Assembly (NCBI GenBank): GCA_036611895.1
Contig: GCA_036611895.1_4766.1
From: a phage
DNA length: 64,000 bases
Direction: 5' to 3' (one strand)
In this document: positions 33,300-61,600 of the stretch, piece by piece
Numbering within the stretch: position 1 is the stretch's first letter
How the letters are laid out: each line of letters starts with the position of its first letter
The notes under the pieces: model-generated
Seen by the model: only the letters and a program-made list of their open reading frames with translations
Told to the model about the DNA's origin: nothing
The model's database searches: none
Program-made: the position numbers and the translations under genes

Positions 33300-34010
33300 A
33301 TGCAAAAATTATCGGAAGTATATCGAGGCTTGGCACTAAGTACCTTAAAAGGTACTGGTGCAGTCACTGATGACAGATTAGATATTGAACCAGATAGTAA
33401 GCCTGAAATATTGGCTGCTATTAATGAAGGACTGGTACGACTGCATAGTCGTTTCCCTCTTAGAACTAATAGCTGCATTGTAGAGATGAAGGAAGGTCGG
33501 ACTGATTATCCTCTACAATCTAAGTATGCTTACTCCAGATTTACTAAGTCTACGCTTGAGATTCAATATCCATATATCATGGATGGGTTCATGAAACCTT
33601 TCCAAGATGATGTTATTAAAATCTTAAATGTGTTTGATAACTCAGGGAATCGCCGTAGACTGAACGATGATTCAGACCCTCATGCAATTTTCACCCCTCG
33701 GCCTGATACTATTCAGTGTATGCGTCCTCGACACTTCGAGGCACTTAACGTAACTTATCAAGCTAAGCACCCAGTACTTACGGGTGATGAAGAACAGGAA
33801 GTTGATTTAGCTGATACGCTAATGACGGCACTTCATAACTGGGTGGGTTATCGTTACCACACTGGTTTGAATACTCCGGAAGCTAATGCTAAGGCAGCAG
33901 AGTATCTGCAAACATACGAAAGCATCTGTGGTGAGGTTGTTGATTACGACCTGGCTAATGGAAGTATTTCAATTACCGAAACTAAATTTGAACAACGAGG
34001 ATGGCGATGA
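33300..34010 (+). CDS. virion-associated protein (236 aa)
   Basis: ORF track; between terminase and tailspike genes. Confidence 0.4.
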   Translation: MQKLSEVYRGLALSTLKGTGAVTDDRLDIEPDSKPEILAAINEGLVRLHSRFPLRTNSCIVEMKEGRTDYPLQSKYAYSRFTKSTLEIQYPYIMDGFMKPFQDDVIKILNVFDNSGNRRRLNDDSDPHAIFTPRPDTIQCMRPRHFEALNVTYQAKHPVLTGDEEQEVDLADTLMTALHNWVGYRYHTGLNTPEANAKAAEYLQTYESICGEVVDYDLANGSISITETKFEQRGWR

Positions 34011-36694
34011 ACGCACACAACCCTTTTGATGCAAAACAGGATTGGACTAATCCTTACTGCCAGAATAGTTCCAATGACCCAATGGTGGATGCACTACTTG
34101 GTAATGCTTACCATGTGGTTCGTACTGTGTACTGCAACCTGGGTAATCTTAAACTCCTGTATGATTTCCTGAACCAGTATGGAATGGTACTTGGTGTACA
34201 GTCTGAGGCAGAACTTAAGGCTCTAACCACTGATGCTAAATATGCACGTATCTATGGCTTCTCTCGTGCAGGTGATCGTCAGGTTACTGACTACCTGTAT
34301 GTGGAAGGCGACCGTACCGGTATTATTCCAGATGACCCAGAAGCAACTGGTTCGTGGATTACTGTTGCTACTACTGGTTCCAATGGGGGTGGTACTTCCT
34401 CCAGTGAGGGTGCTTATATCCCTTGGGTATACAGCAATGGTTCTGCTACTGGTGGGGAAACTTCCATTAACGTACCGGATGGGACAGTAGGTGTACCCTT
34501 TATTATTGTTAATGGTGATATGCAGTATGTAGGGCGAGGTTTTGAGTTTAACGCAGATAACCTTTCCGTAACTCTGGCTCAGCCTTTGGAAGAAGGTGAT
34601 GAAGTAGTATTCCTTCTGACTGGAGTTCCTGCTGTACCGGACAATCCCAATGTTAATGACTGGGTTCAGATTAACTGGTTATACAACAATGGTGCTGCTG
34701 TAGGTGGTGAGCAGGTTATTGCTGTTCCTTATACCTTCCAGTCTATTCCAGCCGTGTATAAGAATGGGCTTCGTTTGTATAAAGGTTTAGCTTCTGAATC
34801 TTATACTGCTGACCCAGATAACCAACGTATTCTTCTTACTGAACCACTGGCAACCAATGACCGATTAATTGTACAGATTGGTGGTGAAGCACAGGTACTG
34901 GAAACATCAGACCATACTCTTCAGGAAGTTGCTCGTGCTACTAACGTTAAGGATAGTGAGGTAATTCTTAGCACTGACACAACTCAATTCCTAAATGGTA
35001 AGAAGATTGTTTACTCTGTTAGTGAGCAGAAGTCCTATAGATTACCTACATTACCTACTAACGTATTTATTTCTTCCGTTAATGGTAACCAACTAACATA
35101 CAATCCTGGTGGGATTGTTGTTGACCTGCTCCCTGCACCTAATGATGTAATTCCAGTGGAGAATGAGTTGCAGGCATATAAAACGGCTATGGTTACTGAT
35201 GGAGGAACATTAGTAAATTCTGGCTTATCTGGTGTTTCTTCTGCAATTAAGCGAACCATTGATAGCCATTTTAAAGACTACTATAACGTTAAAGATTTTG
35301 GTGCTGTTGGAGACGGTGTAACTGATGATACTGAGGCTATTCAATTAGCGGTATCATTCCTTGGAGATTTAACTACTAAAACTATGTTTAGTAGACCATC
35401 TGTACTGTTTTTCCCTGAGGGTGATTACTTAACCAGTAAGCCCATTATCTTGTGGGATGGTGTTACTTTACGTGGGGCATCTCAATCTTCTACAAGGATT
35501 CAGATGACTTCTTCTACTAATACTACGGAAGTCACTACTAATTCCCCTGTTAGGAATCTTCCACGTAATGTTAACTGTATTCTTGCGGTGTTCTCTTCTG
35601 GAACAGGTTACCCATATAGAACTACTATCTCTGATATTCAATTGTATGGTATAGCCGGTACAGCTGGAGTAACTACAGGCAAAGTAGCCTATGCAATCTA
35701 TGCACCGGAAGCAGCATTTCTAACCGTGGAAAGGGTACGCACTTGGTATACAAACTATGGCATTATGTCATATAACCTGTGGATGAGTACTTTTCGAGAC
35801 TTAGATTTACGCGAACATGCTGAGTGGAGCTTCTTACTATCTAACGATAGTACTGGTAGAGGAGGTTCTACATCTATTTCCCTAGAACGGGTATATGGTC
35901 ATACGAGTGAAGGTGGAATTAAACTATATGGGGCCAATTATTCTACATTGTCTTCCTGTGGAGTAGATGCAGCAGGTTCGTCTAATCCCTCCGCAGCGGA
36001 TGCGGCATCTAAAGCCCCATATGTATTTGAAAGTTGCCAGGGTCTTGTAGCCAATTCTTTAGGCGCAGAATCTATTTATACAAGTCGTTGTATCATTGTT
36101 ATTGGCGGGCATGTAACCCTTAATGAGCCTGATTTATACGCTTGGCGTGGTGATGTCACTGGGCGGCGTATGTATGGAGTACATGTAACGGTAAATGGCA
36201 ACCTAGTACTTAATGGTGGTAGGTTATATGGAATTCAGTTCAGAGCAACTGATGCTACCGAATGCTTTGCAGTAGTACAGTCGGATGGTGTTAATGGGTC
36301 TGTTCAATGCAATGGGTCATTAATTTCTGATGCTTCTGTTGACTCTGAAGGTACAGCGATTGGTAATATTTTCTTTGGTTCCCGTACTTATAGAGGCAGG
36401 ACTATTCAGCAAGAAGCAGGGATATCTAGATACCAGACTAATACCTTAACCCTTATTGCAAGTGTTACTACTGGTGATTTATTCTCATCTGGCTTAGATA
36501 CTACAAGGTATACTGTAATAGATGCTGTAGCTCAAATTCATAGTAATTCCCCTACACTAGACCAGGCAAAGCTAAAAGTGCAGGTTATGAATGTCAGTGC
36601 AAATAGTGCTAGAATTTGGATTATTAATCCAGATGGTACTGCTAACTTCACTGCCCAAACCTTACGTGTAACATTCACATATAGAGTAAATTAA
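34001..36694 (+). CDS. tailspike with pectate-lyase-superfamily beta-helix (candidate polysaccharide depolymerase)
   Basis: 897 aa. YNVKDFGAVGDGVTDDTEAIQLAV is a pectate-lyase-type beta-helix N-cap signature common in phage depolymerase tailspikes. Confidence 0.7.
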   Translation: MAMNAHNPFDAKQDWTNPYCQNSSNDPMVDALLGNAYHVVRTVYCNLGNLKLLYDFLNQYGMVLGVQSEAELKALTTDAKYARIYGFSRAGDRQVTDYLYVEGDRTGIIPDDPEATGSWITVATTGSNGGGTSSSEGAYIPWVYSNGSATGGETSINVPDGTVGVPFIIVNGDMQYVGRGFEFNADNLSVTLAQPLEEGDEVVFLLTGVPAVPDNPNVNDWVQINWLYNNGAAVGGEQVIAVPYTFQSIPAVYKNGLRLYKGLASESYTADPDNQRILLTEPLATNDRLIVQIGGEAQVLETSDHTLQEVARATNVKDSEVILSTDTTQFLNGKKIVYSVSEQKSYRLPTLPTNVFISSVNGNQLTYNPGGIVVDLLPAPNDVIPVENELQAYKTAMVTDGGTLVNSGLSGVSSAIKRTIDSHFKDYYNVKDFGAVGDGVTDDTEAIQLAVSFLGDLTTKTMFSRPSVLFFPEGDYLTSKPIILWDGVTLRGASQSSTRIQMTSSTNTTEVTTNSPVRNLPRNVNCILAVFSSGTGYPYRTTISDIQLYGIAGTAGVTTGKVAYAIYAPEAAFLTVERVRTWYTNYGIMSYNLWMSTFRDLDLREHAEWSFLLSNDSTGRGGSTSISLERVYGHTSEGGIKLYGANYSTLSSCGVDAAGSSNPSAADAASKAPYVFESCQGLVANSLGAESIYTSRCIIVIGGHVTLNEPDLYAWRGDVTGRRMYGVHVTVNGNLVLNGGRLYGIQFRATDATECFAVVQSDGVNGSVQCNGSLISDASVDSEGTAIGNIFFGSRTYRGRTIQQEAGISRYQTNTLTLIASVTTGDLFSSGLDTTRYTVIDAVAQIHSNSPTLDQAKLKVQVMNVSANSARIWIINPDGTANFTAQTLRVTFTYRVN

Positions 36695-36700
36695 ACTTTA

Positions 36701-36726
36701 CCCCCCTCTTCGGAGGGGGTTTTACT
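36701..36726 (+). terminator. intrinsic terminator after tailspike 1
   Basis: cccccctc-ttcg-gagggggg hairpin followed by tttt. Confidence 0.6.
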
Positions 36727-36746: not shown

Positions 36747-38804
36747 ATGAACGAGTTATTCTCACAAGGTGGTAAAGGCTCTACTGGTATTCTTACCAAT
36801 AAACAAGCCATTGCTCGTAAGTTCGGTGTTAAGCATAATGAAGTAGTCTACTTTGCTGTAGGTGTAGACTTGGGTGGTTATAAAGTCATCTATGACAAGT
36901 CTACTCAGCGTGCTTATTCTTTACCTGCACTACCGGTAGGAACCACTGCTGTAAGTCTCAATGTACATGCAGTTCTGGTTCATTCAGCAGGTACAGTTGA
37001 TTTGGGTGAACTGGCTGCTACACGTAGGGAGTTCGTAAACCTATCCGACTCGTTTGCTACCGGTTTAATCGTGAATACTAGAAATGAATTACTATTCCAT
37101 AATGGTATAGGTTACACCTACTTAGGCACTCTACCTGTAACAATTACCGCAGGAATTAATCCAGTTGGCAACCCCGATTGGAAACCTCAGACAGACCCGA
37201 ATTTTGGGCGGGATGAAGTTAATGATGACATTCGTGCTTACGTTAGAGACGGCGATCCCATCGCCCCAGACTATACTCAAGCATTAAAGCGAGCTATAGC
37301 AAGTGGTCGTGGTCGTGTTTACATTAATGTACCTGTTGAGATTAAAGAGGATTTGACAATCCCACGTCTTTTCCGGGTAGATGTAGATAAAAACGGGTAT
37401 ATATACTCAACGACAAATAAAGTTCGTATTGAGGGTTTTATTAACTCAATAGGTGGTGGTGATCCGTATCGCAACTATATCAAACAATACGGGGTCAATT
37501 CCTCTACCGTCCCGGGCGTGTACATGGCTAACGTAGTGGTCAATATCCCGGAAGACTTCCCTACGATGCAGGCCGCTATAGATGCCGTACCGGATAACTA
37601 CTGGCAGTTTATTACCTTGCAGATATCTGATGGAATCTACGACGAAGATTTGGTTATTCGTAATAAGAAGGGTTGCTGCCCTACGTTCCCACCAGCTTCT
37701 GGTCAGCAGGCAATTCTGGTTATCACTAGTAAGTCTAAAGACAGGTCTAAAGTGAGCTTCCGCTCAGCTCAGGTATTTTCTTGCGGTGGTACTCCATTCT
37801 CTCCTAATCTGGAGAACCTTAACTTCACTAACCGTACGCACAGTGATGAGGATTGTTCTGTAGAATTCTACGGCTGCACTAGTGGAGCAGTTAATAAGTG
37901 CAGCTTTAATGGTGTAGGCGTAGACAAGTGCATCGAAGCATACAACAGCATAATTATCGTAGAAGCGTGCCACTTCGGGGATAATATCAACGATAAAGGA
38001 ATGGTAGTTAAGCATGGCGGTACTATCTTGTCTGCCTCTACTCAGATTGGTGGTATACTGCAACCTATTACTGGAACCTTAAAGTCCTGGGTAGCAGTAG
38101 GTATTGGTGGCACTATCATAGCTAACGACCTCAGTTCTTGTATTGGCAAGGTAGCACAGTCTCGCGTAGATGGCGTGCAGTCAGGGGTAATAGTTGAAAC
38201 CGTAAGTAAGAGCATTAACGGAGTAACTAACTTCTTCAGACTAGCTACCACTCGCCACCATACGCAATTCCAGGATTATGACAAGTTCACTAATACTGTA
38301 ACTGGTTCGGGTTCCAGTCTTAATTACTACCCTGAAGGGGGGTTAGTGGTTAATGCGGGTACTGCCGGAGGTACTGCCCTGCTTCGCTATAAAAGAGAAC
38401 GTCGCCTAGTTCGTCAGCATGAAACCTCTAACTATTTAGGCTTTGCTGTAGCCTGCACAGTCCCCAGTGGAGTGACCGCACTTAACTGTCATTTAGTATG
38501 TGGCTCAGTGGAAAGTGGCAACTACTTCGGTATCCGTTATATCAATAATGTCGCTCATGGCGTCATCTGCCGGGGAGGAGTAGAAACTACTACTCCATTA
38601 GCTTATAGCACTGAAACTATATGTACATGGACGTGTAAGTATTTAGGTAAGGGTGATGGTCAAGTATTGTTTATGTATGATGATGTATATGCTGGGCATA
38701 TTAATGGCATTAAGCTTGCTTCTTACGATGGCACGTATTTCGAAGCTAACGTAACCAACGCTCGCACGCAACTGTACGAACTTGAGTTCGTAAGCAGTAT
38801 GTAA
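36747..38804 (+). CDS. second tailspike/tail fibre protein with beta-helix-like repeats
   Basis: 685 aa. Gly/Asn/Val-rich repeats with periodic Cys (GCTSGAVNKCSFNGVGVDKC), Thr/Ser-rich segments. Confidence 0.55.
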   Translation: MNELFSQGGKGSTGILTNKQAIARKFGVKHNEVVYFAVGVDLGGYKVIYDKSTQRAYSLPALPVGTTAVSLNVHAVLVHSAGTVDLGELAATRREFVNLSDSFATGLIVNTRNELLFHNGIGYTYLGTLPVTITAGINPVGNPDWKPQTDPNFGRDEVNDDIRAYVRDGDPIAPDYTQALKRAIASGRGRVYINVPVEIKEDLTIPRLFRVDVDKNGYIYSTTNKVRIEGFINSIGGGDPYRNYIKQYGVNSSTVPGVYMANVVVNIPEDFPTMQAAIDAVPDNYWQFITLQISDGIYDEDLVIRNKKGCCPTFPPASGQQAILVITSKSKDRSKVSFRSAQVFSCGGTPFSPNLENLNFTNRTHSDEDCSVEFYGCTSGAVNKCSFNGVGVDKCIEAYNSIIIVEACHFGDNINDKGMVVKHGGTILSASTQIGGILQPITGTLKSWVAVGIGGTIIANDLSSCIGKVAQSRVDGVQSGVIVETVSKSINGVTNFFRLATTRHHTQFQDYDKFTNTVTGSGSSLNYYPEGGLVVNAGTAGGTALLRYKRERRLVRQHETSNYLGFAVACTVPSGVTALNCHLVCGSVESGNYFGIRYINNVAHGVICRGGVETTTPLAYSTETICTWTCKYLGKGDGQVLFMYDDVYAGHINGIKLASYDGTYFEANVTNARTQLYELEFVSSM

Positions 38805-38813
38805 ATAAAACTA

Positions 38814-38840
38814 AGCCCCCTTAACTGGGGGCTTTTCTTA
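38814..38840 (+). terminator. intrinsic terminator after tailspike 2
   Basis: agccccc-ttaact-gggggct followed by tttctt. Confidence 0.6.
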
Positions 38841-39053
38841 TATAGAGTCTACTGTTTGCATTACCCTAATGGATACTGATGTTAAGATTATTACTTGCCC
38901 AGATATATTAAACATACCCAACTGAATACCATCCACCATGAGTTGATACCAGATACTACGTCTGGATGTATTTCATCATACTAAGTATTATCTAAGAGTC
39001 ATCTTATGATATGACCCTATTGGGGATTCTAACTACACAACTACGGTAATATT

Positions 39054-39383
39054 ATGAATGAATCGGGTGAACTACTCCTAGTCAGACTGGAGGAACGATT
39101 GAAGACTCTGTTTGAGAACCAGACAAGGGAAAGGCAGGACCGTGAGAAACTGGAGGAAACTCTGGTAGAACTACGGGATTCAATCAATGACATAGGCAAT
39201 AGGCTGAAAAATGTGGAGGATAGCTTAGCTAAGAATGAACCTACTATTGAAGAGTTCATTACCATTAAGCATAAAGTTGTTGGTGCTGGGATTTTCGGTA
39301 AGTGGGTATGGGCTGGGGCAGGTGCAATTATTGGTGTATTGGCTGCTGCAAGACGGGAGATTTTCACATGGTTCGCAGGCTAA
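39054..39383 (+). CDS. coiled-coil protein with C-terminal transmembrane segment (lysis-module membrane protein)
   Basis: 109 aa. C-terminal VVGAGIFGKWVWAGAGAIIGVLAAA hydrophobic helix. Confidence 0.4.
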   Translation: MNESGELLLVRLEERLKTLFENQTRERQDREKLEETLVELRDSINDIGNRLKNVEDSLAKNEPTIEEFITIKHKVVGAGIFGKWVWAGAGAIIGVLAAARREIFTWFAG

Positions 39384-39628
39384 AGAGAAAGATTGAGTTA
39401 GTACCCAATTGGAAAAGGTGCTGGAAGTGGGCATCTATTCAGATTAGTACATTTGGATTAATTATGTTTTCTGCCATAGATATCATTCAACCAATGTTGA
39501 CAGGACTACCCCGTCATATCCTGGAAGATATTCCCCATGGTTCCAATATTGCAATCGCACTGTTTGCCTTAAACATTGTAGGCAGATTAATACGATTCCG
39601 ACCAAAGGAAAATTCACATGAAAGCTAA
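39368..39628 (+). CDS. holin candidate (start at internal ATG)
   Basis: ORF track 39302..39628; from MVRRLKRK two hydrophobic helices (WASIQISTFGLIMFSAIDII, IAIALFALNIVG); sits before the endolysin. Confidence 0.4.
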   Translation: MVRRLKRKIELVPNWKRCWKWASIQISTFGLIMFSAIDIIQPMLTGLPRHILEDIPHGSNIAIALFALNIVGRLIRFRPKENSHES

Positions 39629-40253
39629 ACAGAAACTTGCTGCGAAAGGAGGTGCAGTGGGAGGAGTTGTCGCTGCTATCCTGGGGGCAGTGTTCTATAT
39701 GGAAGGGGGATATGTAAACAATCCTCGTGACCCAGGTGGGGAAACTAATCATGGAATTACCCAATCTGTAGCTAAATCTCATAAAGAAGTCCTGGCTACT
39801 GAGTATGGTTGGGATGGTTCTATGAAAGGTTTATCAAAAGAGATGGCTGCTGAGATATACATTGATGACTATGTACTTAAGCCTAACTTCGTAGCCTTCG
39901 CTGATATATCTCCTGCTGTAACACACAAGCTGGTAGATGCTGGTGTTAACACTGGTGTAACCCGTCCTGCTAAGTGGTTGCAGTTATCTCTTAATGAAAT
40001 GTCCCGTAATGGCAAAGACTACCCTAAAATACAGGTTGATGGTAAAGTCGGTACAAGTACTGTTAATGCATATAAAGCATTACAGAAAAAACGAGGCAAA
40101 GTTGCAGCATGTCAGGTAATGATTAAGTTACTTGACGCCAAACAACTGAACCACTACACCTCATTAAACATGCCAGACTTTACGTATGGTTGGGTAGCTA
40201 ACCGAATAGGCAATGTGCCACTGGAGGCATGTAATGAAGATGCTAATCTCTAA
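39618..40253 (+). CDS. SAR endolysin, glycoside hydrolase family 108 N-acetylmuramidase-like
   Basis: 211 aa. Gly/Ala-rich N-terminal signal-anchor (GGAVGGVVAAILGAVFY) followed by EGGYVNNPRDPGGETNHGIT GH108 signature. Confidence 0.7.
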   Translation: MKAKQKLAAKGGAVGGVVAAILGAVFYMEGGYVNNPRDPGGETNHGITQSVAKSHKEVLATEYGWDGSMKGLSKEMAAEIYIDDYVLKPNFVAFADISPAVTHKLVDAGVNTGVTRPAKWLQLSLNEMSRNGKDYPKIQVDGKVGTSTVNAYKALQKKRGKVAACQVMIKLLDAKQLNHYTSLNMPDFTYGWVANRIGNVPLEACNEDANL

Positions 40254-40740
40254 AGGTTGGCCTTATCTTCTGGTGGTGGTCCTTGGGGCCACCATTTACT
40301 TTTGGGGTAATTCCAATGGGCAGTCTACTGTTCAAAAGAAATGGGATGCTCAAAAGGTTGAAGACCAAAAGGCAACACAAAAATTACAGGACAAATACAA
40401 TGCTCTCCAAAGAAACCATAGTTATGAAGTCGGGTTACTCACTTCCCGGTTGCAGACGGCTGAGAGTAATTACGCAAGCGAGCTTGCTCGCGTTAGCAGT
40501 GATTACGACAGCCGGATGCAACAGTCTGAAAGACGAGCATCGGTATATAAACGTCAAGCCGAAGCCGGAGCCTTTGAGTGCAGAAGTCTTGCAAGCCATG
40601 CAGCCAGACTCGACAACAGTCTTGAAGAAGGCAGACGTTTGGTTGAAGAACTCCGGGCAACTGTTAGACTCCGTGACAGCCAACTAATTGAGTTGGGTAA
40701 ACAGATTCAGGCTGACCGTAAACTTTTTGAACAGGAATAA
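40234..40740 (+). CDS. i-spanin (Rz-like)
   Basis: Start at ATG with GGAGG RBS ([23 protein letters not shown]): N-terminal TM helix then long coiled-coil periplasmic domain. Confidence 0.55.
40400..40687 (+). CDS. o-spanin (Rz1-like lipoprotein) embedded in +1 frame of i-spanin gene
   Basis: From ORF track 40283..40687; signal peptide with lipobox-like ITTAG-C, Pro-rich mature part (KPKPEP). Confidence 0.5.
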   Translation: MLSKETIVMKSGYSLPGCRRLRVITQASLLALAVITTAGCNSLKDEHRYINVKPKPEPLSAEVLQAMQPDSTTVLKKADVWLKNSGQLLDSVTAN

Positions 40741-40742
40741 CT

Positions 40743-43013
40743 ATGGAACACCAAGACACTTTTAAGCCTTTACCAGACCCGGCTCAATCAGAGAAGTTAA
40801 CGGACTGGAAGAAGGAACCAAGTATCCAATTACTGAAAGGTGATTTGGAATCAGCTAAACCTGCTCACGATGCAATCATGGCACAGATTCGTGAGTGGAA
40901 TGACCTGATGGAAGTTAAGGGTAAGGCTAAACCCCCAAAGGTTAAAGGACGATCCCAAGTCCAACCTAGACTGGTTCGCCGTCAGGCAGAGTGGCGTTAT
41001 GCTCCATTGTCTGAACCATTCCTCTCATCCAATAAACTTTTCAAGGTAACCCCTGTAACTTTTGAAGATGAGTTAGCTGCACGTCAGAATGAATTAGTTC
41101 TTAACTACCAATTCCGTACTCAGCTTAATAAAGTAAAACTGGTAGATGATTATGTTCACAGTATCGTAGATGACGGTACTGGTATTGCTCGCATTGGTTG
41201 GGAACGTAAGACTGTTAAGATTAAAACAGAAACTCCAGTCTTCCAGTTGTATCCGATTGAGAACCAAGAACAAGCAGATATTCTTCAGCAGGCTTTACAG
41301 CTTCAGGCAGAAAATCCTCGTGAGTATGATGAAACAATGCCCGAAGATATTAAGGAAGCTGTTAACTACTTCAATGAAACTGGAGAAGCTACCTATGCAA
41401 TCCAGACTGGTGTTACTGAGGTAGAGGTAGAGAAAGCACTGGTTAACAGACCGACTGTTGAAATGCTTAACCCCAATAACGTAGTTATTGACCCAAGCTG
41501 TAATGGGGACTTGGACAAAGCTTTGTATGCAGTTATCTCGTTTGAGACATGCAAAGCAGACCTCATGAAGAACAAGGACCGTTACCACAATCTGGATAAG
41601 ATTGACTGGGAAAGTTCTAGTCCTATGACTGACCCAGACCATGAAAGTAAAACTCCTAGTGACTTTCAGTTTAAAGATGCACTACGTAAGAAAGTAGTTG
41701 CTTATGAATACTGGGGATTCTACGACATCAATGATGATGGTTCGCTGGAACCAATTGTTGCTACCTGGATTGGTTCTACTCTTATCCGTATGGAGAAGAA
41801 CCCATTCCCGGATGGTAAGTTACCGTTGGTAGTTGTTCCTTACATGCCACGTAAACGTGAACTCTATGGTGAAGCTGATGCTGAATTGTTAGGTGATAAT
41901 CAAGCAATTCTTGGTGCAACTATGCGTGGGATGATTGACCTGTTGGGTCGAAGTGCAAATGGACAACGTGGTTATCCTAAAGGGATGTTAGATACCCTTA
42001 ACCGTCGTCGTTATGATGATGGACAAGACTATGAATACAACCCAATGCAGGGTAACCCTAGTCAGGCCATTATGGAACATAAGTTCCCTGAGTTACCTCA
42101 GTCGGCAATAGTAATGACTCAGATGCAGAACCAGGAAGCAGAAGCACTAACAGGTGTTAAAGCATTCTCTGGTGGCGTAACTGGTGAAGCTTACGGTGAT
42201 GTTGCTGCTGGTATTCGTGGTGTACTCGATGCAGCATCCAAACGTGAGATGGCAATCCTTCGTCGATTAGCTAAGGGTATGGCAGACATTGGTACTAAGA
42301 TTTGTGCAATGAATGCTGTGTTCTTATCTGAGAAGGAAGTGGTACGTATTACTAATGAGCAGTATGTAGAAATTAACCGTGAAGACCTTAAAGGTAACTT
42401 CGATATTGAAGTTGATATTAATACTGCTGAGATTGATAACCAGAAATCTCAAGACCTGAGCTTCATGGTTCAAACGTTAGGTAATACAGTGGACCAGACT
42501 ATTACGTTATCTCTTGTAGCTAAGATTGCAGAACTTAAACGTATGCCTGACCTTGCTCATGAGTTACGTACCTGGCGACCACAACCAGACCCTATGGAAG
42601 AACAGCTTAAGCAATTGGCAATTCAGAAAGCACAGCTTGAGAATGAAGAGTTGAAAAGTAAGATTGCACTCAATAATGCTAAAGCGAAAGAAGCTATTTC
42701 TAGTGGTGACCTTAAAGACCTGGATTATCTGGAACAGGAATCTGGTACTAAACATGCTCGTGATATGGAGAAACAAAAAGCACAATCTCAAGGAAACCAG
42801 AACCTTCAGATAACTAAGGCGTTGACAACACCTACTAAAGAAGGTGAAACTACCCCCAACATATCTGCTGCTGTCGGATATAACGCTTTGACTAACGGGA
42901 ACTCTTTACAGGAACGTGACTTAGCTGCACAGCAAGACCCGACTTATTCACTTAGTTCCCAGTATTATGACCCTAGCCAAGACCCAGCATCGGCTCTTGG
43001 TATGAACTTATAA
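40743..43013 (+). CDS. portal protein
   Basis: 756 aa; size and position upstream of scaffold and major capsid genes, matching N4-like late-region synteny as recalled. No motif-level confirmation. Confidence 0.6.
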
Positions 43014-52606: not shown

Positions 52607-55600
52607 TTGAACAGGAATCATGCTATGTCAACATTTGACCGTCTGGCAGGTTTCGCAGACAGCATCACTACTGCTAAGCAAGTCGATGTCTCTACTGCAA
52701 CCTCTCGGAAACAAGCTGAACAAGGGCAAAGCCCTTTCCAATTAACTCCTCAGAATGCCTACCAATTACAGGCAGGACGTGCCGGTGACTTAGGTGCTGG
52801 TGCATTTGAACCAGGTTCTATTCAGGCAGATTTTACTAATGCCTCCCCCCTTGAAATCGTAAACAAGTATGGCAATGAGCAAGGAATGGACATTCTCAAT
52901 GCTCGTGTCAATGCAGCTAATTCTGTTCGTCGTGATTTAACTAAGAGTCGTACTTATGGTGAAGCACTTGGTGATACCCTTTCTGGTGTTGGTCTTGGTG
53001 TTGCTAATACCCTTGGGGGCATTGCTGCTCTTGGCACAGGTTTGGTCAATGATAATGCCGGGGCAACCATTGCTTCCAGTCTTGACTGGTTGAATAAAGG
53101 TGTACACAACCTACAGTCTGATGCACTGAATGCTCGCCGTAATGTAGTACAGAACCAGAACGTAATATCTGCACAGGAAAATGAGAAACAGTATAAGCAG
53201 GATATTGCTGAAGGAGAAAGTGAACTCGTTGCTTCCTTGTCTCGCATTGGTCGTGATGCTTACGATTCTGTCGCTAACACTTTGTCTAATGGCATGGCTG
53301 CTACAGATGGTCTGGCTGAGGGTGTTGGTTCACTGTTTACTGGTGGTCCACTTATCCGTGGTGTATCTGCACTAGGTAAGGTAATGGTAGGTGGTGATAA
53401 AGCTGTTAAGGGCATTACCTTAGCTGCTGAATTAGGTTCACGTCCTGCACGAATTGCACAGTCTGCTGGTCGTGTTGCTGCACCTGCTATAGCAATTGGT
53501 GGTATGGAAGCTGGTGGTGCATACCAACAGACTGCTAATGAAATTATGGAAATGCCATTCAGTGAACTGGCTGCTAAATCTCCTGTATACCAACAGCATA
53601 TTAAAGACGGTTTATCTACTGAAGAAGCACGACGTCAGACTGCATCTGAAACAGGTATCACTGCTGCTGGTTTAACTGCTCCAGTTGCTGCTCTTACTGC
53701 TCCACTGGTATCCAAGTTTGAACTTAATCCACTTAAGGTAGGTTCACTGGCTGGTGCTGGTTCTAACATGCTGCGAGAGACTGTAGAAGAAGGTATTCAG
53801 TCTGGTACAAGTCAGTTTGCACAGAACAAGGCAATCCAAGGTAATGTTGATGCATCTCGTGACATCCTCAAAGGTGTAGGCGAACAAACTGGTCTTGGTG
53901 CATTGTATGGCTTTGGTTCTGCTGGAGTTGCTCAAGCTCCTGGTGCAACTGTTAAGGCTGCTGGTGCTGCCGTTGGTCCTGCTGTACGTACTACCCTGGC
54001 TGGTGCTTCTCTGGCTGGTAAGGCATTAGCAAAAGTAGCTTCTCCTATTACTAACATCCTGGTTCAACGTGGGGAAGAAGTTGCTAAGCGTAATGAACAA
54101 GCATCCCCTGTATCTGATGCTACGGTTAACGCTGCTGCACAGGAAGCTACTGCTCAGGCAGAACAAGCACAAGCAACTGTACAGGAAGCAGTAGATGCAA
54201 TGGATATTTCTCCAGAAGAGAAAGCTGCTGCTACTCAGTATGCTGCTGACTTAACTCAGGTAATGAAGTTTGATCCAGTAGAACTGGAACAAGCTAGTCC
54301 AGTAGTCCGTGAAGCTGTTTCTGGTTCCACTAACCGTGTTGAAGCTATTCAGAAGATGGCTGACCTGGTTAATACTGCTGAAGACCCTAACGTTCAAATG
54401 GAAGCTGCAATCCAGATGTATGACAACATTATGTCTATGGATAGCTTCATTAACCGTGATCCAGGTGCATTAGCTAATCTGGAACAGGGTTCTCCTGCTG
54501 CTAATATTGTTGATCAGTTCTCCGGTCTGATGGCTAATGTACAGAATACACCGAAGGTACTCCGTGCATTCCGTGCCATTCATTCCATGATTCAGGAACA
54601 GGCAGAAGCAGGTAAACTGAAAGCTACTGAAGAAGCTAACCAAGCCCAAGCAAACAACATTGCTATGGCTGCTGATATGTCTCCAGAAGTGCTGGACGCA
54701 GATTCAGTGAACATGGTTCTGAAACATGCAAGTGAAGGTAAGATTACATTGGGGAATCGTCAGCGTGCTGCCCTGCAATCTGCTGCTGCTCTATTGCAAG
54801 GAGCACGGGAATTTGACGCTAAAGCAGAAGAACTAGGCTTACGTCCTCAAGACATTGTTAGTAAACAGATTAAAACCGACGAATCTCGTTCTAATGAAGG
54901 TCAGTACTCTGCGTTGCAACATGCTAAACGCATTCGTTCTGCGTACAACTCTGGTAACTTCGATTTGGCTTCCGCTTATCTCGACGACTTTATGAAGTTC
55001 GCCCAGCACATGCAGAATAAGGTCGGAGCGTTGAATGAGCATCTGATTTCTGGGAATGCGGATAAGAATAAGTCTGTCCATTATCAGGCTCTTACTCCCT
55101 CGCGTGAATGGGTACGTAGTCGTACTGGCCTCGGTGTCAATCCGTATGATACCAAGTCTGTTAAGTTTGCCCAACAAGTAGGACTGGAAGCCAAGACCGT
55201 AGCTGATATTGCTAACGCACTTGCTACGGCTTACCCGGAGCTTAATGTTTCTCATGTGAAAGTTACCCCATTGGATTCACGTCTGGACAAGCCTGCTGCC
55301 CAGGTAGTTAAAGAGTTCCGTCAGGGCAATCTTGATGCTGCTCAATCCCAACAGACCAATGAACCAGTGAATCAGGTTGATGAAACTCCTGTTACAAAAC
55401 AGGAACCAGTTACCCCTACTGTACAGACTAAACCCTCTGTTAGTGAAGCTGTTAAAACAGAACCCACTATTAAAGAGTCTAAACCACAGGCTGTAAAAGA
55501 ACCTGAGAATCAGTCTGAATCTTCTATCCCAGCTGGGCCTGAAATGAAGACTGCTGAGTTCACCGGTAAACAGCAAGCCTCATATATGCAGTTAGGTCAG

Positions 55601-58600
55601 TACTTTGCTTACAACGGTAAAGACTTTATTGCTATTGGCAAAGATATAGAAGGCACTCGTGCTGTTCCTGTTACTGGTGGTAAGACTATTGTTATTCCAG
55701 GAGAAACTACTGTTACAGGTAAAAGTGACGTACTGACTTCCTTTAAGTATGGGGAAACAAATGTACCTTACGTTATGACTCCAGAAGGTCGAATCTTTAG
55801 TCTACGTAGTACTCGTGAGGTATGGGCTACCCCATCTCAGGCTCGTACAGATTTCCTTAACTATGTTCGGAATACATTCCCTCAACCGGAATCTGCTCCG
55901 GTTAATGTAGAGGAAACAAAGTCTGAATCCGAAAAGCCAAATGATACTACCCTTACTAATGAGGATACCATCGAGCAGTCTACTGAATCTGAAAGGGATG
56001 CTTATGTAAAAGAGAATACTATTTCTCAAGAAACTCTTAATAAGTATGGTGACCGTAGGGAGAGTCCATGGCTCTTTGCTGATGGTACTGTTGTTGGTTC
56101 CAATGGTGACCATATCAGTCTGTCCGATGTATTTGGTCATGATGGGTATCGTGACATGTCTCTGGATACTGGTGCTGTGCGTTCTACCTTCTACAAGGCC
56201 AAGTCTGGCCATCCTGAGGATGTGGACTTCGTGTCGCTGCAGCTGTTTGATAATCAGAAGCTGACTGCTGAACAATTCAATACCGTTCAATCTTTCGTTG
56301 AAGCCAATAATGCACATATTCTGGTTGGTGTAGATACATCTGGGCTTAATACCAATAACGTTGAGGAAGATGAAGTATCACTGGCTCAACTGAAAGCAGA
56401 CCATACCGTGGGCGGTGAACCTCTATCTCAAATGGAAACAGTGTTCCCTGTCTATAACAACGAAAAGACACCGAACCAGTTCCTTAAAGCATTTTCTCTA
56501 CCAGAAGAACCTAAGTCTCGTACCATTGGTTCTGAATCTCCTTTAACTGATGTTAAGAAAGCACTGTCTTCTGCTGCTCGTTTTGAAGCATTCACTCAAA
56601 AAGAAAATAACGCTCTCACAAGTGATGTGATTAAGCGTTATCAGGACTTGTTTGATTTTGGTGAAACTCTGAAGACTACTCTGTCTGACCGTCTGGCTAA
56701 GTTCCTTGCTAATAAGAATGTTGGTAAACGTTTTGCAGAGGGTACTGAGGCTAACCGTTGGGTAGGTGGCAAACTGCTTAATATCGTAGAGAAAGACGGT
56801 GACACCTTTAAGTTCAATGACCAGTTGTTGGAGACTGCTGTACTTGCTGGTCTGCAATGGCGACTGACTGCTACACAGAATGCTGCCATTAAAGACATGA
56901 AAGACGTAGCTGCTATTACTGGTGTAGAAGCATCTCTGCTACCAGAAGGCATTTTGGCTGACTTCGAAAATGCTCAGACATTGGTTGAAGCTACTAACTC
57001 ACTGGCTCAAAAGATTGAATCCTATTGGGGTTTAAATCGTAATCCTAATGCACCACTGGGTTATACCAAGGGTATCCCAATGGCAATGGCTACAGAGATT
57101 CTGTCTTCTCTCATTGAAATGGGTGAAGTTAAAGAGTCCATGCTGGATGTATCTGAGATTGACCCAGAATCTAACAAGACTGTTGGTCTGTATACCATTG
57201 AGAAGTTAGACGATAACGATGCCATTAATAAATTCCCTACTGCTATTGAAGAAGCTGTTCTCGTAGAACCAGTAGAGAAACTGTACCTGGGTGATGATAT
57301 TCCTTCCGTGGCTCAAACTCAGTTACGTAATCCGGCTGTTAAGAATACCCCAGAACAGAAAGCTGCTCTTAAAGCAGAACAGGCTACTGAGTTTCGTGTA
57401 CATATGCCGATGGTTAACTTCTATGAAGCAATGGGTCGTGACAACATTCTGGAATTGATGGGTGCTGGTGCTCTTAATCCTGAGCTACTGAATGTGAATA
57501 CTGCTAAATCTCTGGAAGGTAAAAACCTGTCCGTGTCCATGGCATATGATTCCTTGTTTGGTGTAATCAATCAGATTAAGGAACAGGAGAATGGGCTGGA
57601 TACACCTATTCACTATGGTTACAACATGACCCGTGTAGGTCGTATGCAGATGCTTGGTAAGAACAATCCACAGTCCAGTAAGCTGGTACGTGAAGCAATT
57701 CTACCAACCTTCTCTACCATCGACTTGAGTAATGAAAACAGCCAAACGTTCTCTGACTTCCAGTTAGGTCTGGCTCAGGCATTGGGCATCAAAGTTCATA
57801 AAATGTCTCGCGAAGTTATGTCAGATGAACTGACTAAAGCTCTGGAAGGTAAACTGAAACCTGCCGTCGATATGATGGTTGAGTTTGATAAGTCTGGGCA
57901 CTTACCTACTAATGCAGTGGATATTCTGAAGACTTCCTTGGGGAATGATAAATCATTCGTAGCTCTTATGGCTCTTATGGAATATGCCCGTTACCTGAAT
58001 AGTGATGACCGTGCTAACTTTAATACCCCACTGTACGTTGAAGCTGATGGTGTAACCAACGGACCAATCAACGCAATGGTACTGATGACGGGTGGTAAGT
58101 TCACTTCAGACTGGATTAAGAATACTGCTAAGGGTGGTTTGTTCTTCGGTAAAGCTGGTAAGACCATGAATGAGCATCATTCGCATGAGGACAGCGTTGA
58201 CCTGTATGAAGCATCCACTAATAGTCTGCAACAGGCACTGAATGAATTGCGTAATACTTATCGTAACAACGTTCCTGTTACGAACCAGATGAAGCATCTT
58301 CAGAAGTTAATGGACCTGTTCATTAAAGACTTCAATCTTAATGAAGATGGTACTCTGGACCTGAAACGTGGTATCGCTAAAAACCCACTGACTATTACCA
58401 TCTATGGTTCTGGTGCTCGTGGTATTGCAGGCAAGATGGTTAGTGCAATTACTGATACCATCTACGAACGCTTCAGCGACGTTCTGCAAGCCCGTGCTGC
58501 TGACCCTAGCATTTCTCCAGCTATGGCTATGTTTGGTAAAGAGGCTGCATCTGAAGCTGATGCTCAGGCTATGCTGGATACCTTCCTTACTTCTATGGAA

Positions 58601-61600
58601 GCATTAACTGGTAATGTTCCAGTTATGCGTAAAGGTGAACTGTCTATTCAACAAGTAGAGGGTGCTCTGTCTGGTAAGTTAGACCCCCAGAAGTTTACCG
58701 TATCTGGCAATGCTCTGAAGAACCTGCAAGAGAATATGCTTCACCTGTTCGTTGAACCAATGCGTACTGGTATCCGAAATACTGTTGGTGAAGGGTTGAT
58801 GCACTCTACTGAGAACTTACAGAAGGCTACCCAGATTCAATCACTGGTATTGCAGGATATGTTCCAACAAGCTGTACAGGCTAAGCTGGCAGAAAAAGAA
58901 AAAGACCCAACATGGAAGAAAGGTGATTTCTTAACACAGAAAGAACTGAATGAAATCCAGAATAGCTTAGCTCCGCTGGCTCCAATGATTGAGACTGGTT
59001 CTCAAACATTCTACATTGCTGGTAGTGAGAATACTGATGTTGCTAACCAAGTACTGGCTACCAACTTAGATGACCGTATGCGTGTGCCAATGAGCATCTA
59101 TGCTCCTTCACAGGCAGGTGTTGCAGGTATTCCATTTATGACCATCGGTACTGGTGATGGCATGATGATGCAGACTCTTTCTACTATGAAAGGTGCTCCG
59201 AAGAATACCCTGAAAATCTTTGATGGTATGAACATTGGCATTAATGACATCTCTTATGCAAGCCGTAAAGCTAATGAGGCTGTATATACTTCCTGGCAGG
59301 GTAATCCTATTAAGAATGTATATGACTCCTTTGCTAAGTTCATGAAGAACGTAGACTTCAGCAAACTGTCTGATGAAACCAAACAGGCTATCGCTAAGTC
59401 TGCTCTGGAGTATGACCAACGTGAAGGTGCTACTGATGACCTGTTACGCGTTGGTGCTGAACAGATTGAACGTAATCTGCGTAACATTGCTTTGGGTGTA
59501 GATATTCGTCACAAGGTAATGGACCAGGTACAGGTCACTGTTGACCAGATGGCTGCTGTAGGTGCTCCTTATGTGAACAACGGTAAAATCTCTCTGGAAG
59601 GTTTAACTGTAGACCAGCAAGTAGCTAAGCTGAATGAACTGTTTGATGCTGAATTAAATAAGCGTCGTGATGCAGTACGTGCTGCTAAAGCAGAGTCAAC
59701 GAAGGTAGAACCAGTGAAAGAAGTGCCAGTGGTTGAAGTGCCTGCTATGGAGAAGGTTGGTCGTGTACTGAAGTCTGGTGTACGCCTGCTGTCTAATACT
59801 GCCATTACTAAGCTGGCTAAAGAGATGTCTCCTGAACAACAAGCAGTATTGAAAGAAATACAGAAATCCCTTGCTGCTAAAGACTACAAGGTTGTTTACG
59901 GTACACCTTCTCAACTGGATGCCTACGCTATTGAGAAGAATATTACTCGCCCAGCACCAGAAGATATTGAAGCTGCTGAAGCAGGCAATGCATACGGTTG
60001 GACTAACTTTGAAGATAAGACCATCTACTTAGTTACCCCTTCCTTAGAGACTCTGGTTCATGAATTGGTACATGCTTCTACTTTTGAATCTGTACTGGCT
60101 CACTATGAGGGTACTCCTAACGAAGCAGTCCAGAATATTGAAGACCTGATGAACCAGTTCCGTGCTCTGGATGTTAAGGACGAATCTCCGGCAGTACGTG
60201 AAGCATATGCTGATGCACTCAATACCATTAATGGTCACTTGTCTAACGGCTTTATTGAACCAGCAATGGCTAAAGCTGCTGCACTGAATGAGTACATGGC
60301 CTGGGGTTTAACCAACCGTGAATTGATTGGCAAGCAGAAGAAAACCACTGCACTTAAAACTATGGTTCAGGCTGTATATGAAGCAATCAAACGTCTGGTA
60401 TTCGGACGTAAGAAAGCTCCGGCTAATGCAGATGATATGTTCTCTGGCTTACTGTTTAACTCTGCTGTAGTAATGCGTGGACAAGCTCCTACTGCTGCTG
60501 TAGCCAAAGACACTACCTTGTTCCATAACAAAGCATACGGTGACAATACTCGTCTGGAAGAGCTAGGGAAAACCTTCGATAAGCTGATTACTGACTACAT
60601 TGGTTCAGAACCAGTACAACAAGTAATTCGTAAAGGTAAGTTCTCTGATGCAGTAGTGAATGCAACTAAAGTAACTCGCGATGTTCAGGCTCATGGCTTC
60701 ACCATGAATATGCAGGAACAGCGTCTCTTTACTAACATTGTTGCTGCACTAGCTACCGAGGCTACTATTAACCCAGCTGCCATGGCTCGTGCACAGGAAT
60801 ACTACACGCATGTTACTAAGAACCTGACTGTTGAAGCGTTCATGGCTGACTCTGATAGTACTAACCCTGCTGACCGTTACTATGCACAGCAGAAGTTCGA
60901 TACCATTATGGGTGCTAACAACATTGAGTTTGATGCACAGGGTCGTTCTTCCTTACTGCCTACCTTTGTTGGTCTGGCAATGGTAAGTGAAGAGGTACGT
61001 AAGGTACTGGCTGATATTCCTGTTATGAAAGCAGATAAGAAATCAGGCAATACTGTTGATGCAATGCTGACTAACATCGGTACTGCTGCAATGGCTAGTC
61101 TGAATGCTCGTGTAGCAGGTGATACTAAAGCTACTAACGTACAGGAAGGTATGGATGCACTGGCTCAGACAATCATGCAGACCAGCCTTAATGCAGAGTC
61201 TTTCTATGATTCCGTTGCTACTCCTACCGGTAATGCTATTGACCGTGCTAACCAGTATCTGGTGGATTCTATTGATGCACTGTCTACTCGTACTTTGGAA
61301 GGTGCTCGTGAAGTTGCAGCTAATACCAAGAACCCACTGGTTAAAGGTGCTGCTCATGCTGCACAACTGATAGCTGCTATTGCTACAGAGAAGAATGGTT
61401 CAATCGTAGCTGAAGGTGTTATGGCTGCAATGAACCAGGGTAAAGTATGGCAACCTTTTCATGACCTGGTTAATGACATAATCGGTCGTACTAAGAGCAA
61501 TGCTTCCGTATATGATTTGATTAAAGCAGTACGTGCACAGGTACAAGCAGACCGTCAACAGTTCCGTGAACATTTGCCTACCACTATCGCATCTAAGTTC

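Follow-up and report, generated by a model that had tools for sequence, protein, structure and literature searches.

The window analysed here, a stretch of 64,000 nucleotides of phage DNA, carries a run of small overlapping genes between its tailspike and portal genes, and the question raised by this locus is whether the genes form a complete lysis module and by what mechanism such a module would open the host cell. Five ORFs with tight overlaps lie on the plus strand at 39054-40740, at the positions and in the order that an earlier note on this DNA had described: ORF-A (39054..39383, 109 aa), ORF-B (39368..39628, 86 aa), an endolysin gene (39618..40253, 211 aa), an i-spanin gene (40234..40740, 168 aa) and an o-spanin gene (40400..40687) in the +1 frame inside the i-spanin gene. 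The placement of the cassette between tailspike and portal was likewise borne out, since the upstream gene (36747-38804) matched PHROG tail spike (3e-71) and the downstream gene (40743-43013) matched Pfam SU10_portal (8e-151). The spacer between the tailspike gene and the cassette is 249 nt whereas the gap to the portal gene is 2 nt. An ORF on the minus strand at 39041-39367, antisense to ORF-A, was without support and was treated as spurious. Scans for tRNA and Rfam families over the whole window found nothing.

The window DNA matches more than 30 Gamaleyavirus genomes at 93-97% identity, each with the same annotated cassette, and is about 94-95% identical to that of PD205, ECBP1, St11Ph5 and Bp4. 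Judged by this identity, the window is Gamaleyavirus (Schitoviridae) DNA from a G7C-type, N4-like coliphage. The family matches of the cassette proteins (GH108, PG_binding_3, DUF7940, PHROG holin, Rz-like spanin and phrog_5211) are far beyond chance, and the BLASTP E-values of four of the proteins against N4 range from 2e-43 to 1e-104. These comparisons point with a probability of about 0.9 to a multi-gene lysis module in which every gene has its orthologue in N4 gp63-gp62-gp61-gp60/gp60a. The cassette is already known: dozens of phage genomes have near-identical, annotated copies of it, and the N4 counterpart has been dissected experimentally. The genes, domains, membrane and lipoprotein signals and orthology were established in the present analysis, with the membrane features based on hydropathy and composition only; the roles of the individual proteins and the order of events we infer from the experiments on N4, for which the source is a preprint and the orthologues are only 57-70% identical.

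In that work gp63 of N4 was identified as a pinholin, gp62 as a late canonical holin, gp61 as a SAR endolysin and gp60/gp60a as a two-component spanin (bioRxiv 10.1101/2025.11.12.688109, Awuah et al.). The gp63 protein was described as the master lysis timer; it complemented the pinholin S21 but failed to complement lambda S. The gp62 protein, a non-essential canonical holin, caused late, CCCP-triggerable lethality with release of soluble R, and its deletion shortened the lysis delay, with lysis about 1 h earlier, a phenotype that could not be complemented. The gp61 protein was membrane-associated, functioned with a pinholin and became active once depolarisation had freed it from the membrane, and a charge introduced into its SAR segment (G12E) resulted in rapid lysis; its muramidase activity is credited there to Stojkovic & Rothman-Denes 2007. 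Finally, gp60/gp60a complemented lambda Rz/Rz1. The same preprint notes that G7C, a Gamaleyavirus genus-mate, is reportedly without the N4-type lysis inhibition. Timing and regulation may thus differ from N4 in the window phage. Closer to the window, the Gamaleyavirus-like phage UE-M6 has an 86-aa holin and a 211-aa GH108 endolysin, with gene sizes identical to those found here; both were cloned and were growth-inhibitory, and lytic activity was reported for the endolysin (PMC12661215).

ORF-A is 67% identical to N4 gp63 (BLASTP, 2e-53), with homology over the full length that includes the PTIEEFITIKHKVVGAG motif and the C-terminal transmembrane domain (TMD), and matched the profile phrog_5211 at 1e-49. 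Residues ~6-60 (nt 39069-39233) are assigned to a cytoplasmic coiled coil, residues 61-71 (nt 39234-39266) to the equivalent of the N4 'LIN domain' with PTIEEFITI conserved, and residues ~75-99 (nt 39276-39350) to a Gly/Ala-rich TMD with an internal Lys, the C-terminal segment being the only hydrophobic one revealed by hydropathy. The long coiled coil anticipated for one of the upstream membrane proteins was supported by a heptad test of residues 6-60, in which hydrophobic residues occupied 80% of the a/d positions as against 15% elsewhere (0 of 2000 shuffles as high), and by a single-sequence AlphaFold2 model with a helix over residues 3-61 at pLDDT > 90. ORF-A is predicted to be a tail-anchored pinholin of the gp63 type that would form small holes as its N4 orthologue does. 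It may act like a pinholin yet falls outside the S21 family, as the phage 21 pinholin has two TMDs, TMD1 being a SAR domain, whereas ORF-A has one C-terminal TMD and a cytoplasmic coiled coil.

Two details of this gene were considered and rejected. A dual start was suggested by N4 Met17, which corresponds here to a TTG at 39099 preceded by GGAGGA; the codon specifies Leu or Phe in most relatives, leaving no conserved start. A change of N4 S62 to Asn61 in the LIN domain was considered as the cause of absent lysis inhibition in G7C-type phages, but G7C itself has Ser at that position.

ORF-B, counted from an ATG with a GGGAG Shine-Dalgarno sequence and overlapping the gp63 homologue by 16 nt, is 62% identical to N4 gp62 (BLASTP, 2e-43) and matched Pfam DUF7940 (1e-13, 52.1 bits against a cut-off of 27) and the PHROG holin family phrog_1356 (9e-30). 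Hydropathy peaks at residues 22-40 and 59-77 indicate two TMDs which, with basic N- and C-termini (N-in/C-in) and a gene adjoining the endolysin gene, are the features of a class II holin. From orthology with N4 we infer that this class II-type holin is late-triggering. The reading frame is open upstream to GTG 39302, providing alternative starts at GTG 39302 or ATG 39308 that would add 22 or 20 codons. The long frame is open in six of nine relatives, whereas Moo19, Fifi450 and Paxi have stop codons in it; a longer gp62 isoform is therefore not a conserved feature and is a possible product here.

The assignment of pinholin to ORF-A and late holin to ORF-B has to be weighed against a reversal of the N4 roles, or a true holin/antiholin pair, in which the two-TMD protein would be the timer and the coiled-coil protein a regulator or antiholin. 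Such an arrangement draws on the holin label, which only gp62 carries in GenBank and PHROG, on the co-occurrence of gp62 and gp63 in 60 of 65 N4-like genomes, on the antiholin-like advance of lysis upon deletion of N4 gp62, and on the possibility that regulation differs in G7C-type phages, given their reported lack of lysis inhibition. Set against this, N4 gp63 is lethal to cells by itself and makes good a pinholin defect, its deletion delayed lysis or forced suppressor mutations in the SAR domain, and no gp62 mutant was found among more than 60 N4 rapid lysers. Moreover, Delftia phage RG-2014 has gp63 beside the endolysin gene without gp62, and an alignment of 10 relatives revealed that gp63 is nearly invariant over the stretch that begins at PTIEEF and closes with the TMD. 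Exchanged roles, or a true holin/antiholin pair, are judged quite unlikely. The earlier note had suggested that the two upstream membrane proteins may form a holin/antiholin pair; two such proteins are indeed encoded upstream of the endolysin, but the N4 results identify gp63 as the pinholin and timer and gp62 as the late holin. An antiholin-like role of N4 gp62 is conceivable from the shortened lysis delay of the deletion, which could not be complemented.

The third gene of the cassette encodes the endolysin. The protein is 70% identical to N4 gp61 and 96% identical to G7C gp61, and is assigned to the endolysin family by PHROG. Pfam detected GH108 (PF05838) at residues 24-113 (6e-20, 71.9 bits against a cut-off of 21.2) and PG_binding_3 (PF09374) at residues 117-196 (1.5e-7, 31.9 bits against a cut-off of 24.6). 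The structures 6v3z (5e-27) and 6v40 are its relatives in the PDB. NCBIfam returned a sub-threshold match only (holin_dep_muram, 57 bits against a cut-off of 240). Members of GH108 have a conserved EGGY motif with the catalytic glutamate close to the N-terminus. Here EGGY occupies residues 29-32 (nt 39702-39713) at the start of EGGYVNNPRDPGGETNHGIT (residues 29-48), preceded by K10-GGAVGGVVAAILGAVFYM; the motif is present in eight of 10 aligned family members, with EGGW in inbricus and EQGY in RG-2014, and the Glu in all 10.

The segment between K10 and Glu29 (residues 11-28, nt 39648-39701) has the properties of a SAR domain, which is a weakly hydrophobic N-terminal TMD, rich in Gly, Ala, Ser and Thr, that follows basic residues. 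Its G+A fraction is 0.50 and its mean Kyte-Doolittle hydropathy 1.87, with K2, K4, K6 and K10 upstream, and it is conserved across 10 genera-level relatives. The G+A fraction was the informative measure, as the TMDs of the gp62 and gp60 homologues have values of 0.15-0.24; a crude sum on the Hessa hydrophobicity scale did not tell it apart from the remaining TMDs encoded in the cassette. The SAR domains of P1 Lyz and phage 21 R have similar G+A fractions, 0.45-0.55. The segment is without Cys and hence without disulfide caging of the P1 type. A single-sequence AlphaFold2 model, made to see whether the SAR helix packs into the catalytic domain, failed at a mean pLDDT of 34. The glycine replaced in the N4 G12E mutant aligns with G15.

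It could be argued that the N-terminus has no releasable SAR domain and is either a Sec signal peptide that is cleaved off or a signal anchor that stays in place, as a basic n-region (K2, K4, K6, K10) ahead of 18 hydrophobic residues bears a superficial likeness to a signal peptide. However, Glu29 of EGGY follows the hydrophobic stretch directly, leaving no c-region and no -3/-1 small-residue site upstream, a sequence argument against cleavage, and Gly and Ala make up half of the stretch. The membrane association of N4 gp61, its compatibility with a pinholin and the rapid lysis upon placing a charge in the segment are also contrary to this alternative, which is considered very unlikely. The results support the gp61-type protein as a SAR endolysin with a GH108 muramidase domain, for which activity and release are predicted. 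Thus, the combination of a Gly/Ala-rich signal anchor with a GH108 motif claimed by the earlier note is substantiated by PF05838 and the G+A fraction, and its proposal of SAR export with pinholin-type triggering is what the experiments demonstrated for the N4 orthologues, at 57-70% identity.

The i-spanin ATG is preceded at 6 nt by a GGAGG Shine-Dalgarno sequence, the mechanical ORF beginning at 40213. The protein matched the PHROG Rz-like spanin family phrog_6197 (5e-78) and is 57% identical to N4 gp60 (BLASTP). It has an N-terminal TMD (residues ~7-24), a periplasmic helical domain, a C-terminal heptad region and one Cys (C123), an architecture of TMD and periplasmic helical/coiled-coil domain expected of an i-spanin; heptad scores for residues 118-165 were equalled in 7 of 2000 shuffles. 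A terminator-like hairpin at 40272-40296 was also observed within the region encoding the TMD.

Translation of the +1 frame placed the o-spanin ORF, which starts at ATG 40400 or ATG 40427 and stops at 40687, wholly within 40234-40740 as anticipated. The gp60a homologue is predicted from its sequence to be an o-spanin lipoprotein, with a lipoprotein signal, a lipobox (...AVITTAG-C, Cys codon 40517-40519) and Asn, a residue other than Asp, at +2. The Thr at -3 (TAGC) departs from the strict [LVI][ASTVI][GAS]C consensus and is identical in Moo19. The mature protein comprises 56 aa in which the lipidated Cys is the only one. An embedded o-spanin with a mature length of 56 aa and the core NVKPKxEPLSxxVLQAMQPxST.. 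was present in eight of nine related loci scanned (59 aa in Paxi), and none was detected by a frame scan of the Burkholderia HN01 locus. The same ORF is annotated in St11Ph5 as gp60.1.

Taken with the N4 experiments, these features suggest a sequence of events. The endolysin would be exported by Sec and held in the inner membrane, tethered and inactive, by the weakly hydrophobic Gly/Ala-rich SAR segment, with the catalytic Glu29 directly at the membrane end of that segment. The tail-anchored gp63-type protein would build up in the inner membrane and at a set time form small depolarising holes, as a pinholin. Loss of the membrane potential would free the SAR endolysin to the periplasm, where it would refold and cut peptidoglycan as an N-acetylmuramidase. 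The two-TMD gp62-type protein may serve as a second, late-triggering large-hole holin, a back-up or modulator, and the i-spanin/o-spanin complex would act last to disrupt the outer membrane.

The cassette resembles that of N4 in gene order, overlaps, domain content and adjacency to the portal gene, and in protein size (109/86/211/168/56 mature here and 110/87/208/167/56 in N4). Conservation extends to the N4 LIN-domain residues T65, I70, T71 and I72 and to the SAR glycine G12. The two differ in genus (Enquatrovirus for N4, Gamaleyavirus here) and in the upstream genes (gp64/gp65 in N4, a tailspike here), and also in the replacement of S62 by Asn, of the internal Met17 by a TTG Leu codon, and in the o-spanin, whose signal peptide here has a lengthy n-region and the lipobox TAGC where N4 has IVGC. 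The tethering by a Gly/Ala-rich anchor of a Sec-exported endolysin that is freed by small depolarising holes is shared with S21/R21 of phage 21 and with P1 Lyz, although there is no sequence relationship and the enzyme here is a GH108 muramidase rather than one with the T4-lysozyme-like fold. The spanins resemble lambda Rz/Rz1 in the +1-frame embedding, a type II i-spanin of coiled-coil character and a small outer-membrane lipoprotein as o-spanin, but belong to phrog_6197, and the mature o-spanin is without Cys beyond the lipidated one.

Gamaleyavirus cassettes in GenBank (G7C gp60-gp63, St11Ph5, Bp4, pSb-1, ECBP1, PD205 and UE-M6) contain essentially the same genes with allelic differences only, the gp63 of St11Ph5 being 99% identical to ORF-A, and the spanin pair is annotated gp60.2/gp60.1 or gp60/gp60'. 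The value of the analysis beyond correct annotation is small, as this is a textbook pinholin/SAR endolysin/spanin system that has been deposited many times. Relatives of ORF-A are mostly mislabelled 'tail length tape-measure protein' or 'hypothetical', for which gp63-type pinholin is the fitting name. That ORF-A is a virion protein with no role in lysis, as implied by that label or 'tail needle protein' in many related records and by the adjoining tail-fibre genes, is barely conceivable, since a protein of 109 aa with a C-terminal TMD cannot be a tape measure, the label seems to have spread in error through coiled-coil similarity, Pfam returned only a sub-threshold coiled-coil match and the N4 orthologue functions as a pinholin.

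An intrinsic-terminator-like hairpin on the plus strand at 38813..38834, AAGCCCCC-TTAACT-GGGGGCTT followed by TTCTT, starts 9 nt past the tailspike stop codon. Terminator-like sites numbered 7 against 1.8 expected from shuffles, and each of the 11 Schitoviridae loci that were checked has an equivalent GC hairpin with a T-run ahead of its gp63 homologue. The hairpin would mark the upstream limit of the cassette transcription unit. Accordingly, the view that the cassette is embedded in the structural operon stands as regards gene order, but the hairpin and the spacer part it from the tailspike gene.

Compared with G7C, the coiled-coil half of the gp63 homologue is a different allele, nucleotide identity being about 60% as far as nt 39243 and 85-100% thereafter. 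A recombination junction for tailspike exchange falls inside gp63, and the boundary of tailspike-module exchange reaches into the pinholin gene. Fragments of the coiled-coil segment were also found in a Phapecoctavirus and an Ackermannviridae phage. It is conceivable, although unlikely, that the 5' two-thirds of the pinholin gene, encoding the coiled coil, is recombination-prone and allelically diverse and moves with tailspike modules across unrelated phage families. G7C-type phages, with an intact N4-type LIN motif yet reportedly without lysis inhibition, are useful natural comparators for the study of lysis inhibition in N4. Should lysis timing be set by the coiled coil, or should this domain respond to a signal of superinfection or lysis inhibition, a swap of the host-range module would also reset timing, and receptor specificity would be linked with lysis regulation in N4-like phages.

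Megablast searches with the cassette and a 25-kb stretch showed that the window DNA is ~93-97% identical to phages PD205, ECBP1, St11Ph5, Bp4, pSb-1, ZQ2 and EC1-UPM that infect E. coli and Shigella. Judged from sequence, the window is from a Gamaleyavirus, a G7C-like N4-like phage of the family Schitoviridae, subfamily Enquatrovirinae. The minus strand carries early and middle genes (~800-30400), the plus strand the late ones (31000 onward). The ORF at 52607-63862, 3751 aa long from a TTG start, most likely encodes the giant virion RNA polymerase characteristic of N4-like phages; such an enzyme is annotated in related records, whose matches reach only to nt 55000. Neither Rfam nor tRNA scans of the window gave any hits.

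The lysis cassette reported in the earlier note was confirmed at 39054-40740 as five plus-strand genes with short overlaps, assigned by agreeing Pfam and PHROG searches. ORF-A (39054-39383, 109 aa) matched phrog_5211 of unknown function (1e-49), and ORF-B (39368-39628, 86 aa, 16-nt overlap with ORF-A) matched DUF7940 and a PHROG holin family (9e-30). The endolysin gene (39618-40253, 211 aa, 11-nt overlap with ORF-B) encodes GH108 and PG_binding_3 domains, the GH108 match scoring 71.9 bits against the Pfam cut-off of 21.2. The i-spanin gene (40234-40740, 168 aa, 20-nt overlap with the endolysin gene) matched the PHROG Rz-like spanins (5e-78) and has a GGAGG Shine-Dalgarno sequence 6 nt 5' of its start. 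The o-spanin gene lies inside it in the +1 frame, from an ATG at 40400 or 40427 to the stop at 40687. The portal gene (SU10_portal, 8e-151) starts at 40743, 2 nt past the i-spanin stop, and two genes upstream of the cassette (34001-36694 and 36747-38804) belong to tailspike families.

The cassette is already known as a feature, the same genes having been annotated in records of close megablast relatives. The St11Ph5 record lists gp63 (hypothetical), gp62 (holin), gp61 (N-acetylmuramidase), gp60.2/gp60.1 (spanins) and gp59 (portal), while that of G7C gives gp63, gp62, gp61 and gp60/gp60'. From UE-M6, a close relative, the holin (86 aa) and the GH108 endolysin (211 aa) have been cloned (PMC12661215). 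GenBank relatives of 39054-39383 widely carry the labels "tail length tape-measure protein", "tail needle protein" or "hypothetical"; the virion-type labels on this 109-aa membrane protein appear to be propagated mis-annotation.

Direct BLASTP against phage N4 (NC_008720) aligned ORF-A with gp63 (67% identity, 2e-53), ORF-B with gp62 (62%, 2e-43), the endolysin with gp61 (70%, 1e-104) and the i-spanin with gp60 (57%, 5e-59). The o-spanin matches N4 gp60a, with a mature part of 56 residues in both and an almost identical core (NVKPKxEPL...). In a preprint, N4 gp60-63 were enough for rapid lysis, gp61 was a signal-anchor-release (SAR) endolysin functioning with a pinholin, charge insertions in its SAR segment such as G12E gave rapid lysis, and gp60/gp60a complemented lambda Rz/Rz1 (bioRxiv 10.1101/2025.11.12.688109).

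In the N-terminus of the window endolysin, four lysines precede G11-GAVGGVVAAILGAVFYM-28, which runs straight into E29-GGY, the catalytic motif of GH108. Gly and Ala make up 50% of residues 11-28, versus 15-24% in the transmembrane domains (TMDs) of the gp62 homologue and i-spanin. Since no space is available for a signal-peptidase c-region ahead of the catalytic Glu, the sequence argues for an uncleaved anchor, and P1-type disulfide caging is not expected since the segment contains no Cys. Related phages of Achromobacter, Erwinia, Pseudomonas, Stenotrophomonas, Delftia and Burkholderia also keep the segment. Related solved structures are the TtsA-like muramidases 6v3z and 6v40. Asn occupies position +2 after the o-spanin signal peptide, from which outer-membrane sorting is predicted; lipobox position -3 is Thr, slightly outside the strict consensus, yet identical in Moo19. 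An equivalent embedded ORF was found in eight of nine related loci scanned and was not detected in Burkholderia HN01.

The interpretation in the earlier note was supported overall. In N4 the coiled-coil protein is itself the pinholin, and the holin/antiholin pair that the earlier note thought possible is not established. ORF-A has a strong heptad pattern at residues 6-60 (reached by none of 2000 shuffles), and residues 3-61 are a confident helix in a single-sequence AlphaFold2 model. Across the family, the PTIEEFITIKHKVVGAG motif is almost invariant, as is the TMD, which is rich in Gly and Ala and contains an internal Lys. In N4 the main timer is gp63, a pinholin anchored by its C-terminus, with rapid-lysis mutations clustering in its LIN domain from S62 to I72, and gp62 is a late-triggering canonical holin that is non-essential (bioRxiv 10.1101/2025.11.12.688109). 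The two hydropathy peaks and basic termini of ORF-B indicate a predicted N-in/C-in topology. A dual start in gp63 was dropped as not conserved among relatives, as was a long gp62 isoform overlapping gp63, its frame being open in only six of nine relatives. The idea that S62N explains why G7C-type phages reportedly lack lysis inhibition was refuted, since G7C itself has Ser.

Eight further Schitoviridae loci were compared (Moo19, Klebsiella phi1_146050, Achromobacter Axy04, Erwinia Fifi450, Pseudomonas inbricus, Stenotrophomonas Paxi, Delftia RG-2014 and Burkholderia HN01), and all eight carry a gp63 homologue and endolysin gene just 5' of the portal gene; spanins are annotated in some, not every, record. 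The gp62 gene is absent between gp63 and the endolysin gene in RG-2014, and its position in inbricus holds only a truncated, 44-aa annotated ORF, results suggesting that some lineages can do without the two-TMD holin.

The description of the cassette as embedded in the structural operon agrees with the gene order tailspike-cassette-portal, but an intrinsic-terminator-like hairpin (38813-38834) and a 249-nt spacer (38805-39053) part it from the tailspike gene. The other tail-fibre gene likewise has a GC-rich hairpin and T-run 3' of it (36701-36723), and an equivalent element lies 5' of the gp63 homologue in 11 of 11 Schitoviridae loci examined (L001 and L003-L012). These hairpins suggest a conserved transcriptional boundary ahead of the lysis cassette, which thus probably heads, or is attenuated into, a transcription unit running on into the portal and head genes. 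The G7C record annotates hairpin copies as 16-bp repeat regions. In phage nithesis an extra 627-nt minus-strand gene (3031-3657 of locus L002) lies between the tailspike gene and gp63, where the window has the spacer only.

The cassette genes, domains, membrane signals and orthology were established in the window, and the roles and their order are inferred from N4. In the best-supported model, the endolysin would be exported by Sec and tethered to the membrane, inactive, until membrane depolarisation by the gp63-type pinholin, at a set time, releases and activates it; the gp62-type holin would act as a late back-up or modulator, and the spanin complex would then disrupt the outer membrane.

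Nucleotide identity to G7C is ~60% at 39064-39243, the coiled-coil part of gp63, versus 85-100% from 39244 (PTIEEF motif) onward, indicating a mosaic junction within the pinholin gene. The junction with St11Ph5 is further upstream, at ~38944. Two unrelated large myoviruses carry fragments of the gp63 5' region beside tail or tailspike genes. In the Phapecoctavirus vB_Ec-G1, EcG1_105 (3001-3444 of locus L013) is a chimeric 147-aa ORF whose N-terminal 84 aa share 87% identity with window gp63, and in AV101 (Ackermannviridae) an unannotated 5' remnant (2501-2614 of locus L014) accompanies a tailspike whose N-terminus shares 58% identity with its counterpart in the window. Together, the junction and the fragments suggest that tailspike-module exchange, across families, carries part of gp63 along as a passenger.
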